Shown: one piece after another, positions 14,636-18,096 of the stretch
How the letters are laid out: each line of letters starts with the position of its first letter
Numbering within the stretch: position 1 is the stretch's first letter
Source of the DNA: a virus
IMG/VR virus record: IMGVR_UViG_3300021400_000038
Location: 1 to 41,305 of that record
Length of the DNA: 41,305 nucleotides
Reading direction: 5' to 3' (one strand)
Made by a program: the position numbers and the translations under genes
The notes under the pieces: model-generated
Told to the model about the DNA's origin: nothing
What the model saw: only the letters and a program-made list of their open reading frames with translations
The model's database searches: none

Positions 14636-15712
14636 TCAAAAATGCACCGAATTGAGGGCGTTCATCAGCACGATTTCATCGGTCGGCATCATGTGGGAAT
14701 AGGTCTGCAACGTCTGCTGCACGGTGGAGTGTCCGAGGCGTTTTGATACCGCCGTGATCGGAACACCGTGGGAGATCAGCAGGGAAGCGTGGCTGTGCCG
14801 AAGGTCATGCACCCGGATCTCCTGAACGCCCGCTTTCTTTGCGTCCGAATGAAGGTGCCTTCTGATCGCCTCTGTCAGGATCGGGCGGTCGCCGCCGAAC
14901 ACATAGTCCCCGGCGGCAGTCTTTTTGTACTCTTTCAGTTCGTCCACGAGGATGTCAGGCATCGGGATCGTCCGAACGCTGGATTGGTTTTTCGGGGCCG
15001 TGATGGCGAATTGCTCGGCGGTCTTGACCGTCAGGCTCTTATTGATCCGAACGGTCTTTGTGTTCAGGTCAACGTCGCTCCATTGCAGGGCAAGCCCTTC
15101 TCCCCGGCGGCACCCGGTAAAGTAGAGGAAAATATAGAACATCCGATAGACCGCGTCCGGCTCCTGTTCCATGGCCAGGAAAAACTCGCGCGGCTCCCAG
15201 ACCTTCATTTCCTCTTTGCGCTCGGTGTTGCGCGGCGGCTTGATCTTCCGCATGAAGTCCGAGGTTTCGTAGTAGTCCATACCGTAGTAACAGACGGCTT
15301 TCAGCAGGCGGAACAGCCCTATTTTGTAGTCGAACGACAGACCGTTGATGGACTCCAACCATTTCTGGATGACTGCCGGTTTTGCGTCGGCGATCTTGAC
15401 GGTTTCAAAGAATGGGATGATCCGCTTTTCCGCCTTGCTCTTTTCGGTCAGGAAGGACGACTCGCGGTTCCTGCTCTTTTGGTATTCAAGGTATCTTCGC
15501 GTGAGTTCCGCGACCGTTGTCTGGTCCGGCGCGGCTTTCTGCGCTGCCTTGCGTTCCTCGGCGGACTTGATATAGTCCTCATAGGCGAACTGCGCCTCAC
15601 GTTTTGTCTTATAGCCGGACAGCCGTTTCTGGTGGATCTCATTGTCCGCGCCCATTTCCCGGAACCGGCACGACCACAGCCCGGATGCGGCATTCTTTTC
15701 GTAGGATGGCAT
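14636..15712 (-). CDS. int: Tyrosine recombinase / phage integrase.
   Basis: GCRRGEGLAL (Arg I), IRVHDLRHSHASLLI (H-x-x-R box), LGHSTVQQTLQTYSHM (catalytic Tyr). GGAG-N5-ATG at 15712 is preferred over the TTG at 15736. Confidence 0.9.
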   Translation of the reverse strand: MPSYEKNAASGLWSCRFREMGADNEIHQKRLSGYKTKREAQFAYEDYIKSAEERKAAQKAAPDQTTVAELTRRYLEYQKSRNRESSFLTEKSKAEKRIIPFFETVKIADAKPAVIQKWLESINGLSFDYKIGLFRLLKAVCYYGMDYYETSDFMRKIKPPRNTERKEEMKVWEPREFFLAMEQEPDAVYRMFYIFLYFTGCRRGEGLALQWSDVDLNTKTVRINKSLTVKTAEQFAITAPKNQSSVRTIPMPDILVDELKEYKKTAAGDYVFGGDRPILTEAIRRHLHSDAKKAGVQEIRVHDLRHSHASLLISHGVPITAVSKRLGHSTVQQTLQTYSHMMPTDEIVLMNALNSVHF

Positions 15713-15729
15713 TTCTGCTCCGATCTCTA

Positions 15730-15758
15730 TTGACAAAAGAACCTTTTTGTGCTATCAT
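15730..15758 (+). promoter_or_regulatory. Sigma-70-type promoter for the small toxin-like gene.
   Basis: TTGACA (15730-15735), 17-nt spacer, TATCAT (15753-15758). Confidence 0.55.
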
Positions 15759-15869
15759 AATAGCGGTGGATCTTCCACCCAGAGGAAGCCATAACGGTGG
15801 CGGCTCTCCCTCTTTTATAGAGGGACGATCTTTTTCTCCCTCTATTTCACAATGGAGGGAGGTGATACC

Positions 15870-15956
15870 ATGGTTTACATCACATGGCAGGATGCTTTGC
15901 AGATTGCCACTCTTGTACTTGCCATTATCGCTTGTTTTCGCAACAAAAAGAGATAA
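15870..15956 (+). CDS. 28-aa hydrophobic peptide MVYITWQDALQIATLVLAIIACFRNKKR. Candidate type I toxin (holin-like toxin type).
   Basis: Not in the ORF track because it is under 60 aa. Strong SD GGAGGGAGGTG, then 7 nt, then ATG. One TM helix plus a basic tail. The SD can pair with upstream CTCCCTC (15836-15842). Confidence 0.55.
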   Translation: MVYITWQDALQIATLVLAIIACFRNKKR

Positions 15957-16026
15957 CCGCCCACTCCTTGCCAGGTTAAGCGGTTATCTCGTTTGATCCG
16001 AGGGAGAACCGTCATCGGCTTCCTCT
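15942..16026 (-). ncRNA. Candidate antisense antitoxin sRNA of about 85 nt, convergent with and overlapping the 3' end of the peptide gene.
   Basis: Starts downstream of the consensus - strand promoter at 16033-16061. Ends at an 11-bp hairpin (15990-15950) followed on the - strand by TTTTTGTTG. Contains CUCCCUC (complement of 16000-16006), which is complementary to the toxin SD. Confidence 0.5.
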
Positions 16027-16032
16027 GTCCCT

Positions 16033-16061
16033 ATTATACACCGCTTTTTTTGTTTTGTCAA
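16033..16061 (-). promoter_or_regulatory. Perfect consensus sigma-70 promoter on the - strand.
   Basis: The - strand reads TTGACA (16061-16056), a 17-nt spacer, then TATAAT (16038-16033). Confidence 0.7.
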
Positions 16062-16090
16062 TAGGTATGTAAATATATTTATATAATTTT

Positions 16091-16114
16091 GCGGGGAATT
16101 TCCCCGCCTTTTTT
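16091..16114 (+). terminator. Palindromic hairpin GCGGGGAATTCCCCGC followed by a T-run. + strand terminator, possibly a weak bidirectional one for the lipoprotein operon.
   Basis: 16-nt perfect palindrome followed by CCTTTTTTATTTT on the + strand. Confidence 0.65.
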
Positions 16115-16634
16115 ATTTTAACGCACTTTCTTTTTCCGCTTTTAGGTTTTCTATTCTTTCATACGATGTTTGCATATACCTGTCTAATGAAGAAATACGG
16201 GTGTTATAGGTATTCATAACTTGATTAAGTTGATATTCCAACTCTGAAATTTTCTTCTTTTTGGCTTCAAGAGATTGTTGTGCTTGTAATCTTGTGTCCA
16301 TATATTTTTGATATATCGGCTTATTGTACTCTTGAACATAGTACTGATAATCTGCTTTTGCAACATGAATTTGATCTGAAAAATCTTTTTGAACTGCATC
16401 TCTTTCGATAATTAGTTCGGATCTTTCACGAGACAAGCCATCATAATATCTTTGCTCGTCTGCTATCATGGAATCATATTTTGCAGAAATTTCTGCTTTA
16501 TTATTTGCAGTATTTGACTCGTTTACTGTATTTGGCTCTGTTACATTATTTGACTTGGTTACATTTTTTGAAGAGCAAGATACAAATATAAATGCAATAA
16601 TAAGCAATACAAATAGAATATTTATAGTTTTCAT
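16113..16634 (-). CDS. Lipoprotein of 173 aa, AT-rich moron. Candidate superinfection-exclusion or surface protein.
   Basis: Signal peptide plus lipobox MKTINILFVLLIIAFIFVS-C. Coiled-coil-like mature part. Much lower GC than its surroundings. ATGA overlap with the upstream XRE gene. Confidence 0.8.
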   Translation of the reverse strand: MKTINILFVLLIIAFIFVSCSSKNVTKSNNVTEPNTVNESNTANNKAEISAKYDSMIADEQRYYDGLSRERSELIIERDAVQKDFSDQIHVAKADYQYYVQEYNKPIYQKYMDTRLQAQQSLEAKKKKISELEYQLNQVMNTYNTRISSLDRYMQTSYERIENLKAEKESALK

Positions 16635-16951
16635 TGTTCTATCTCCCTTACAAATTCAATGACCCTCTCCTGCTCGTCCGCGGTCAGCCCGCGGAACAGA
16701 TCGAGCAGGGCTTTTTCTTTTTCGGAAAGTACCACCTTGGGTTCCGCTCCCGGATCGTCCGTGTTGCCCAGAAGATAATCGGCGCTGACACCAAAATAGG
16801 ACGCGATCGCAAGCAGGGAAGAATGGTTTGGCACAGTATTCTTCTTTTCCCAGTAACGAATCTGGTTCTCTCCCATTTTAACATCGGATAAAAATTGCTT
16901 TCTTGTTAAATTTCGTTCTTGCAAAAGAGCGTTTAACCGTTCGATAAACAT
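16631..16951 (-). CDS. XRE-family HTH transcriptional regulator, 106 aa.
   Basis: LTRKQFLSDVKMGENQIRYWEKKNTVPNHSSLLAIASYFGVSADYLLG is a classic Cro/C1-type HTH. GGGAGAAAAA RBS. Confidence 0.85.
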   Translation of the reverse strand: MFIERLNALLQERNLTRKQFLSDVKMGENQIRYWEKKNTVPNHSSLLAIASYFGVSADYLLGNTDDPGAEPKVVLSEKEKALLDLFRGLTADEQERVIEFVREIEQ

Positions 16952-17065: not shown

Positions 17066-17191
17066 ATGACAAAATTCGCAGATTTTGCAACAGAACAGGA
17101 AGCCGCGCGGTGCGTGGAACTCCTCAAAAGCATGGGCGAGAATGCCCGGCAGGACGGTTGTACCGTCTTTGTGGAGTATTCAAAACAGTAA
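17066..17191 (+). CDS. Unlisted 41-aa ORF MTKFADFATEQEAARCVELLKSMGENARQDGCTVFVEYSKQ. Divergent from the XRE gene and convergent with the repressor gene, overlapping its 3' end by 12 nt.
   Basis: GGAG-N7-ATG. Promoter at 16983-17011. Visibly more GC-rich than the flanking AT-rich spacer. Confidence 0.4.
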   Translation: MTKFADFATEQEAARCVELLKSMGENARQDGCTVFVEYSKQ

Positions 17192-17785
17192 CTTTCCCCG
17201 GATCTCCACGGCGATGCCCATGCAACGGACGGGAAGTTTCTCTACCTGCTCCGCGCTGAAATTCATCGGTTCATACTTTGGATTCAGGGCAACGAGCGTG
17301 ACGCCGTTCGGACGGACGATGACGCGCTTTAAGGTTGCTTCTTCTCCGTTCACCATGACGGCGCAGACCTTGCCGGACTCGAACTCCTCGCTTTTTCGCA
17401 GGATCACCACGTCGCCGCTATACATTCTCGGCTCCATGCTATCCCCACGCACTTGCAGGGCGAAGTATTCTCCGCTCTTTGCCATTTGCGCGGGGATTTC
17501 TTCATAGTCGATGATCTCTTGCTCTGCCAGGATCGGAAGCCCGGCGGCGATCACGCCGTAGACGGGGATCTTGACGCTATTAGGAGAAGTCCCATCCAAT
17601 AAGTAGTCCACAGAAACGCCAAAGTATTCTGCAAGTTTCCGCGCGGTTTTCGACGATACTCCTTTTACTCTTCCCATTTTTAATTCTGTTGCAAGACTTG
17701 GAGCAACGCCCGCTGCTTTTAGCGCAACATGAGGCTTTTCGCCTCTTTCCTCGCATAATTTCACTATTCTTTCGTAAATATTCAC
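17180..17785 (-). CDS. cI/LexA-like repressor with an N-terminal XRE HTH and a C-terminal S24 peptidase domain.
   Basis: HTH TARKLAEYFGVSVDYLL. S24 motifs VRGDSMEP and ATLKRV. GGGGG-N7-GTG at 17785 is preferred. The ORF-track extension to 17932 runs through the AT-rich operator region. Confidence 0.85.
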   Translation of the reverse strand: MNIYERIVKLCEERGEKPHVALKAAGVAPSLATELKMGRVKGVSSKTARKLAEYFGVSVDYLLDGTSPNSVKIPVYGVIAAGLPILAEQEIIDYEEIPAQMAKSGEYFALQVRGDSMEPRMYSGDVVILRKSEEFESGKVCAVMVNGEEATLKRVIVRPNGVTLVALNPKYEPMNFSAEQVEKLPVRCMGIAVEIRGKLLF

Positions 17786-17845
17786 AACATAACCCCCAAA
17801 AAATTGTACAAAAGTACCAAAATTACAAAATTTAGTATAAAACAG

Positions 17846-17874
17846 TTGACAACCACAGAATTTAGTGGTAAAAT
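17846..17874 (+). promoter_or_regulatory. Candidate early lytic promoter with an operator-like element in its spacer.
   Basis: TTGACA, 17-nt spacer, TAAAAT. The spacer contains CCACAGAATTTAGTGG and shares the TTTAGTGG half-site with the 16991-17004 palindrome. Confidence 0.5.
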
Positions 17875-18096
17875 TGTATTGCAAAACAGAAATGCGTAAA
17901 AATCGCGTGGTATAATTCAGGTGTACCAACAAATTGTAAATGATTTGTGAATTATACCACGCCCCCGCTTGACAAGCAAGCGGGGGGTGGCAAGTCCAAA
18001 AGAATTATAATGCACTGTTCACCGCTTACATTATAATACAACTTTTGGTGTTTGTCAAGTGGTTTTTACAAAAAATTGTAATAAGGGAGGAGGGAT

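Follow-up and report, generated by a model that had tools for sequence, protein, structure and literature searches.

We analysed a complete virus record from IMG/VR (IMGVR_UViG_3300021400_000038; 41,305 bp with direct terminal repeats, hereafter the window), whose source is a temperate gut phage, and found that positions 15730-16114 probably constitute a self-contained cassette resembling toxin-antitoxin (TA) systems of type I, with a predicted mRNA and a predicted antisense RNA. A strong promoter would drive a ~350-nt mRNA for a 28-residue membrane peptide with a single helix and an NKKR tail, the candidate toxin. A convergent promoter of perfect consensus, contained in the 3' untranslated region (UTR) of this mRNA, would give rise to a ~85-nt antisense RNA, the candidate antitoxin. 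A previous sequence-only reading of the window had proposed a type I TA-like module here; every element that it listed was found at the positions it gave, and its interpretation is supported at the sequence level by conservation of the unit, with covariation, in 24 independent loci. What this reading overlooked is the dominant structure of the predicted mRNA, a long-range helix that closes its 5' and 3' ends.

Relatives of the cassette were collected by scanning one genome per species with a back-translated pattern, which yielded 29 matches. Five of these (L006, L007, L015, L021, and L026) proved to be chance matches containing in-frame stop codons, and the 24 true members all came from metagenome-assembled genomes of Clostridia, assigned to Eubacteriales, Oscillospiraceae, or Lachnospiraceae and recovered mostly from the gut of goat, deer, cattle, and yak. 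The structure alignment comprised 24 complete loci, namely the window and 23 others, with L027 left out because it is cut by a contig end. The peptide open reading frame (ORF), both promoters, the antisense terminator, and a set of pyrimidine and purine boxes were conserved as one unit in 24 loci. Two structural elements, the stop-codon hairpin and the 3' strand of the closing helix (the 3' arm), were near-invariant in the aligned loci, as were the Shine-Dalgarno (SD) sequence, its spacing, and the start codon. Judged by this comparison, the arrangement is conserved and not a product of chance.

The 28-residue peptide, whose family consensus is MDYxTWxDLIQIAxLVFAIISCFxNKKR, has a mean Kyte-Doolittle hydropathy of 2.5 over residues 9-23. 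The synonymous fraction of the differences among relatives was 0.39-0.41 in frame compared with 0.01-0.14 out of frame. When only the 13 codons left free by the search pattern were considered, this fraction was 0.39 in frame compared with 0.13 and 0.01 out of frame, with only 5% of the differences falling at second codon positions. These comparisons indicate that the 28-codon ORF is under coding selection. A longer, 34-aa ORF starting at the ATG at 15852 was rejected, its additional EGGD being the translated SD and its ATG being absent from many relatives. A phmmer search of the ORF against 1.84 billion representative proteins recovered 23 cluster representatives at E<1e-3; in nearly all of them the gene call had been wrongly extended across the leader, an error explained by the conservation of the leader's nucleotide sequence, and all were unnamed or annotated as "hypothetical".

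On the opposite strand, the promoter of the candidate antitoxin was perfect (12/12) in 24/25 family loci, with a spacer that was constant in length (17 bp) and variable in sequence, and its inferred transcription start site (TSS) coincides with the outer end of the closing helix. The antisense terminator overlaps the stop codon of the peptide, and its U-run, which is the complement of the N-K-K codons, is present on the minus strand only; across 24 loci, the terminator stem either did not vary or varied with compensation, and 98.8% of its cells were paired. The predicted antisense RNA, with a length of 83-97 nt in all 24 loci, would be complementary to codons 24-28, the stop codon, the hairpin, and the whole 3' arm, covering 70 nt of the 3' UTR, and it holds a CUCCCUC motif that is the complement of 16001-16007. 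At the level of sequence, a candidate antisense gene complementary to the predicted toxin mRNA, with a conserved promoter and terminator, is present at this locus.

On the sense strand, an equivalent promoter scoring at least 10/12 and carrying the TG extension was found in 21/25 family loci, and a simple scan located a + strand terminator 20-47 nt past the antisense -35 box in 9/25 loci. L014 1059-1405 and L019 4433-4773 lack the sense promoter at its usual place and have an extra hairpin inside the 5' strand of the closing helix (the 5' arm); in these two loci, the promoter has probably been displaced upstream. The hairpin at 15807-15825 in the leader was considered as a transcription terminator and rejected, as its U-run lies 5-8 nt off the stem and inside the loop between the middle purine box and the second pyrimidine box. 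The -35 boxes of the two promoters (15730-15735 and 16056-16061) are inverted copies of each other (TTGACA ... TGTCAA) and bracket the cassette in nearly every locus, and a pairing of alignment columns 2-7 with 379-384 in RNAalifold was discarded as an artefact of these inverted boxes.

The + strand RNA spanning 15765-16116 was predicted to fold at -146.5 kcal/mol compared with -89.2 +/- 5.3 kcal/mol for shuffles (z = -10.8), and the fold of the opposite strand was also very low in energy (-136.7 kcal/mol). The dominant fold is the long-range helix 15780-15812 : 16000-16027, with 27-29 bp, which closes the two ends of the mRNA and whose 3' strand is the stretch covered by the ~85-nt antisense RNA. 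The mRNA carries two pyrimidine anti-SD boxes (box 1 and box 2) and three purine partners for them (the middle box, the SD, and the 3' arm); the third purine box, GAGGGAG at 16001-16007, is paired with the first CTCCCTC box (15806-15812).

We tested a combined structure, consisting of the closing helix, the box 2:SD helix, and the antisense terminator, against slid controls and 500 shuffles. In the combined structure, 92.5% of cells were paired compared with 43-60% in the slid controls, and 20 pairs had changed on both sides compared with 7-12; none of the 500 shuffles reached any of these measures. In the inner closing helix, 10/17 pairs were compensated and 94% of cells were paired. G-U pairs at columns 83:324 and 86:321 are conserved and fit the + strand RNA only, because the other strand or the DNA would have C-A mismatches at these positions. 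Since MAFFT misaligns the variable outer helix, we also assessed how well each 5' arm pairs with the 3' arm of its own locus and with those of other loci. Cognate pairing was more stable than non-cognate pairing for the outer closing helix (-18.1 vs -11.2 kcal/mol), the inner closing helix (-30.4 vs -26.5 kcal/mol), and the helix between the middle box and box 2 (-15.5 vs -11.8 kcal/mol), with a permutation p<=1e-4 in each case. RNAalifold returns the box 2:SD pairing as a consensus helix, and 95.8% of its cells are paired. Taken together, the predictions and the covariation support an mRNA structure that occludes the SD, as in a type I TA system.

In several copies (L017 2749-3093, P0003, P0007, L045, and L051), the stop codon has been lost and the ORF runs into the terminator hairpin (...KKITA..., ...KKDNRPA...). 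L017 has degraded boxes and weak energies for the arm and for the pairing of the middle box with box 2, and from its sequence it looks like a decaying copy.

Table 1. Elements of the cassette and flanking phage genes, with their positions in the window
Feature	Positions	Strand	Remarks
Peptide-mRNA promoter, TTGACA-17-(TG)TATCAT	15730-15758	+	Score 11/12, TG extension; inferred TSS ~15765
Predicted peptide mRNA, ~350 nt	15765-16114	+	105-nt leader, 28-codon ORF, 3' UTR; ends inferred from promoter and terminator
5'-terminal hairpin, GGUGGA-UCU-UCCACC	15765-15779	+	GGCG-AAAG-CC(C) at the same place in relatives
5' arm of closing helix	15780-15812	+	Ends in anti-SD box 1, CUCCCUC (15806-15812); pairs with 16000-16027 in the minimum free energy structure
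Middle purine box, AUAGAGGGA	15817-15825	+	Alternative partner of box 1 or box 2
Anti-SD box 2	15835-15845	+	CUCCCUC at 15836-15842; box 2:SD duplex -18.3 kcal/mol
SD, GGAGGGAGG	15854-15862	+	Contains GAGGGAG; 7 nt before the ATG at 15870
28-codon ORF, MVYITWQDALQIATLVLAIIACFRNKKR	15870-15956	+	Stop 15954-15956; one hydrophobic helix, basic C-terminal tail
3' arm of closing helix, GAGGGAGA-ACCGUCAUC-GGCUUCCUCUG	16000-16027	+	Also target of the antisense RNA 5' end
Peptide-mRNA terminator, GCGGGGA-AUU-UCCCCGC then U6	16091-16114	+
Antisense-RNA promoter, TTGACA-17-TATAAT	16061-16033	-	Score 12/12; inferred TSS ~16026
Predicted antisense RNA (candidate antitoxin), ~85 nt	15942-16026	-
Antisense intrinsic terminator	15940-15990	-	11-bp stem 15990-15950, then UUUUUGUUG
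Tyrosine integrase gene (int)	14636-15712	-	Phage_integrase 3e-24, phrog_1 1e-65
Lipoprotein-like ORF, 173 aa	16113-16634	-	AT-rich; only a marginal PHROG match, E = 0.0056
XRE regulator gene	16631-16951	-
CI/LexA-like S24 repressor gene	17180-17932	-

When the window mRNA was folded computationally on its own, box 1 paired with the 3' arm, a second helix joined the middle box to box 2, and the SD lay in a weak, G-U-rich helix with the coding sequence. When it was cofolded with the antisense RNA, box 1 paired with the middle box, and box 2 formed an 8-bp clamp on the SD (ddG -86 kcal/mol). Across the family, the predicted pairing of the SD with an anti-SD box rose from ~0.40 to ~0.66 when the 3' part was blocked. 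We propose a mechanism in which the 3' arm of the free mRNA would hold box 1, so that box 2 would be the only pyrimidine box free to pair with either the middle box or the SD, and the SD would be only weakly occluded. Binding of the antisense RNA to the 3' arm and the hairpin would shift box 1 onto the middle box, whereupon box 2 would clamp the SD and turn translation off. The sequence-only reading had envisaged an anti-SD logic acting both in cis and in trans; the CTCCCTC boxes, the SD, and the antisense CUCCCUC are all present, but the release of box 1 would explain the cis effect of antisense binding better than the CUCCCUC in trans, which may also act.

The ~85-bp duplex formed by the two RNAs is likely an RNase III substrate, and the mRNA would therefore also decay. 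By binding to the bsrG mRNA at its 3' end, SR4 lengthens the sequestration of the SD from 4 to 8 bp (PMC3834814) and promotes decay of the mRNA (PMC3834814, PMC6562991), and in Bacillus subtilis RNase III is recruited by antitoxins with this layout (PMC6562991); given the SR4 and RNase III precedents, both a translational block and cleavage of the duplex would be expected. The 5' hairpin and the closed ends would give a long-lived mRNA, as post-segregational killing requires. Upon loss of the cassette or of antisense transcription, this stable, closed mRNA would be translated, leading to post-segregational growth arrest, which in the window phage would favour retention of the prophage. By analogy with prophage type I TA systems that stabilise phiCD630-1 (PMC7699646), prophage retention is the most likely role of the window cassette.

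Several observations weigh against this interpretation. The SD is already predicted to sit on box 2 in the free mRNA in ~10/24 relatives, and the family mean for the box 2:SD helix (-14.4 kcal/mol) is more stable than that for the helix between the middle box and box 2 (-11.5 kcal/mol). Since the SD is predicted to be pre-clamped in ~10 relatives, we regard the relay as a hypothesis rather than as a family-wide result. Moreover, changes in the box 2:SD helix are confined to one of its sides, as expected if the SD cannot vary, so covariation is no proof of this pairing, and translation of the toxin would require processing or another trigger. The role in prophage stabilisation rests on analogy, abortive infection, which the sequence-only reading put forward as the other option, is likewise an inference, and most copies of the family are chromosomal. 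Lastly, no curated model in Pfam, NCBIfam, PHROGs, or Rfam recognises the peptide or the RNAs.

A further possibility, which we consider tentative and rather doubtful, is that the long-range helix is an "anti-anti-SD" device. Here, the antisense RNA would displace the 5' arm at a distance of ~150-200 nt from the ribosome-binding site and thereby set off a three-helix relay that stops translation. Since three purine boxes would share two pyrimidine boxes, the SD would be left unpaired in the free closed mRNA, and the antisense RNA would have its site of action entirely away from the ribosome-binding site. The same antisense promoter may, by read-through, be the sole source of int mRNA, which would couple int to antitoxin transcription.

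Read as a type I TA-like module, the cassette resembles bsrG/SR4, bsrE/SR5, bsrH/as-bsrH, and txpA/RatA of B. subtilis prophage regions, which likewise encode a one-helix peptide with a basic C-terminus (29-59 aa) on a comparable toxin mRNA (~250-300 nt) whose SD is held in a helix, and in which a convergent antisense RNA (here predicted) covers the 3' end of the ORF and the 3' UTR. These systems also share a prophage location with the window cassette, whereas the other family copies are mostly chromosomal. The predicted antisense RNAs of the family are shorter (~85-97 nt compared with 163-222 nt). Unlike the Bacillus systems, the cassette has a covarying 5'-3' closing helix whose 3' strand is the antitoxin target, as well as two anti-SD boxes and a decoy purine box, and its hosts are uncultured rumen and gut Clostridia.

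Interactions between the 5' and 3' ends and anti-SD elements are general determinants of type I TA systems (PMC8594479, PMC6733600). In hok/Sok of plasmid R1 and aapA1/IsoA1 of Helicobacter pylori, a long-distance 5'-3' interaction folds the toxin mRNA and successive anti-SD elements block premature translation (PMC8594479, PMC6733600), in both respects like the cassette. However, their antisense RNAs cover the 5' or translation-initiation region, and their mRNAs become active through 3' processing, whereas here the antisense RNA would target the 3' strand of the long-distance helix, and what this helix would sequester is not the SD but an anti-SD box; the sequences are unrelated. In the par locus of pAD1 (Fst-RNA II), one bidirectional terminator serves both RNAs and 5' direct repeats interact. 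In contrast, the antisense terminator of the cassette has its U-run on the minus strand only, the mRNA would read through to 16091-16114, and no par-type repeat pair was seen in the cassette. Type I TA systems are almost unknown in Clostridia beyond Clostridioides difficile (PMC6563280), whose prophage modules (CD0977.1/RCd11 and others) resemble that of the window in being carried by a clostridial temperate phage and in encoding a short, hydrophobic, Lys-rich peptide (PMC7699646, PMC6563280). The C. difficile modules have been shown to stabilise a prophage (PMC7699646); their toxins are 34-47 aa long compared with 28 aa here, and no sequence similarity to them was detected.

Searches of the 28-aa and 34-aa peptides against Pfam, NCBIfam, and PHROGs gave no match. 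Against Rfam, nothing reached the gathering score, only noise appeared at E<=10, and described antitoxin RNA families were not matched. The sequence-only reading had suggested a check against the hidden Markov model (HMM) of Hol_Tox (PF16935; cut-off 23.3 bits), and at the peptide level this gave no support: the window peptide was unmatched at E<=10, 27/28 relatives were unmatched and the other fell below the cut-off (E = 0.018), and a six-frame HMM search of seven genomes or records missed every family locus. At the DNA level, a probable link to true Hol_Tox loci, which occur in 24/301 Clostridia genomes, did emerge. The nhmmer profile of the family matched the Hol_Tox locus L051, whose peptide scores 31.2 bits against Hol_Tox and thus lies above the Pfam cut-off, over the whole module (E = 2.4e-33), and five further Hol_Tox loci matched at 1e-5 to 1e-7. 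Aligning the family and Hol_Tox peptide alignments with hhalign gave a probability of 79.6% at 7% identity, largely reflecting similarity of the transmembrane helix. Most of 25 Hol_Tox loci examined share the family's layout, with a hairpin over the stop codon and an antisense promoter ~80 nt past the stop; their SD is of the GGAGGTG type, as in the family, and 5'-3' pairing was predicted in 13/17 foldable loci. The peptide motifs differ (TW.DLIQIA...CF.NKKR in the family vs TYEALSLMI.FG in Hol_Tox). Based on the DNA profile matches, the shared layout, and the hhalign result, we would place the family among the Hol_Tox-type, 3'-overlapping type I TA modules, as a divergent branch that lacks annotation, although it is not a member by the curated model.

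In the window, the cassette lies in the lysogeny module between the integrase and repressor genes, and all flanking genes are on the minus strand. The 173-aa ORF next to it has a GC content of 36% compared with ~53% in the phage, carries a signal peptide and a lipobox-like FVSC motif, and overlaps the XRE gene by ATGA; judging from these features, it could be a superinfection-exclusion lipoprotein moron. In a sister phage (L002), whose int is 97% identical to that of the window and whose XRE gene is near-identical, window positions 15713-16634, comprising the cassette and the lipoprotein gene, are swapped for a 393-aa ORF (L002 1798-3000). This ORF is unrelated to the cassette and the lipoprotein gene and had no Pfam or PHROG match. 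Because the homology between the two phages ends at most 3 nt from the int start codon and the cargo is unrelated, sequence comparison indicates that the position adjoining int is a swappable moron slot that holds other cargo in the sister phage.

The sequence-only reading had described type I modules as common on prophages, which is not the case for this family: its copies are mostly chromosomal, an integrase adjoins only 1/19 upstream neighbours, and the neighbouring genes are unrelated housekeeping genes (IlvD, FBP aldolase, GDPD, GerA, and similar). Genomes carry 1-4 copies, and occurrence is patchy (1/301 genomes sampled in an order, 4/201 in a family, and 7/78 in a genus). Two narrow DNA patterns and a strict peptide pattern gave no match in IMG/VR, and an alignment-based search matched 81 stretches in viral contigs, none of which was confirmed by tblastn. 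A looser hairpin motif, in contrast with these narrow patterns, revealed related cassettes on eight other viral contigs (nhmmer E 1e-14 to 1e-24), and these encode other peptides, such as the 27-mer MTWNDFLTLALVVCNIIQIFQNDNKKR and the 25-mer MELCYIVLAIVLLVALDNVIKNIKK. Three IMG/VR contigs (L063, L065, and L066) hold two related cassettes each, with different peptides on the same RNA scaffold; the cassettes of L066 adjoin an Amidase_3 endolysin gene and a tail endopeptidase gene. There was no match in a BLAST search of the region against GenBank phages, in an exact look-up of the peptide in the protein collection, or in a profile search of the PDB. In its multiple copies, patchy occurrence, independence of context, phage-borne relatives, and replacement in the sister phage, the family bears a clear sequence signature of a selfish module.

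This mode of spread, which is typical of addiction-type modules, bears on whether the peptide is a toxin at all. It could instead be a small, harmless membrane protein whose expression is controlled by the antisense RNA and by RNA structure, perhaps an accessory modulator of a membrane process or of the interaction between phage and host. We consider this unlikely, although it is the alternative to be taken most seriously: the peptide matches no validated toxin model, BsrE-type peptides are weakly toxic (PMC6562991), and the predictions for ~40% of relatives have the SD occluded in either state, which would fit a simple dampening of expression. A perfect antisense promoter in 24/25 loci, together with the predicted multilayered occlusion of the SD, argues against it, as do the mode of spread and the DNA-level link to Hol_Tox loci.

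The minus-strand promoter at 16061-16033 is the only one scoring at least 9/12 between the lipoprotein gene and int, so int mRNA must start at or pass it and read through the terminator at 15990-15950. Expression of int could consequently be coupled to the cassette by read-through, as far as the promoter scan indicates, and an int mRNA starting here would be antisense to the entire toxin mRNA. That this is really the int promoter with an attenuator hairpin at its 5' end, the + strand ORF and structure being secondary, is nevertheless very improbable, as the unit is kept in 24 loci with unrelated and variously oriented downstream genes, the ORF is under coding selection, and L002 expresses its 97%-identical int without the promoter-terminator unit. 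Feeding int is thus at most a secondary effect, confined to the window phage. Least probable of all is a structured non-coding RNA or a DNA inverted-repeat element (a cruciform, or akin to a miniature inverted-repeat transposable element) with an incidental ORF, since the imperfect ~30-nt terminal inverted repeats (15780-15812 / 16000-16027) and the very low fold energies of both strands (-146.5 and -136.7 kcal/mol) that might suggest it are outweighed by the G-U pairs, in place of which DNA or the other strand would have C-A mismatches, the in-frame synonymous fraction (0.39 vs 0.01-0.13 out of frame), the invariant SD, SD spacing, and start codon, and the location of the repeats internal to the two promoters rather than at the ends of an element.

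Annotation pipelines are blind to type I TA systems of this sort, as every database copy of the peptide is unnamed or a "hypothetical protein". The cassette could also be of practical use, as a counter-selection or RNA-switch part for anaerobes that are hard to engineer. For the family, the analysis provides a well-delimited RNA architecture, supported by covariation, across rumen and gut Clostridia and their phages. The mechanism, if true, would be one in which an antisense RNA acting at the 3' end flips a relay of anti-SD helices, and it is testable. For the biology of the phage, the moron slot adjoining int would be a site at which addiction or exclusion cargo is exchanged.

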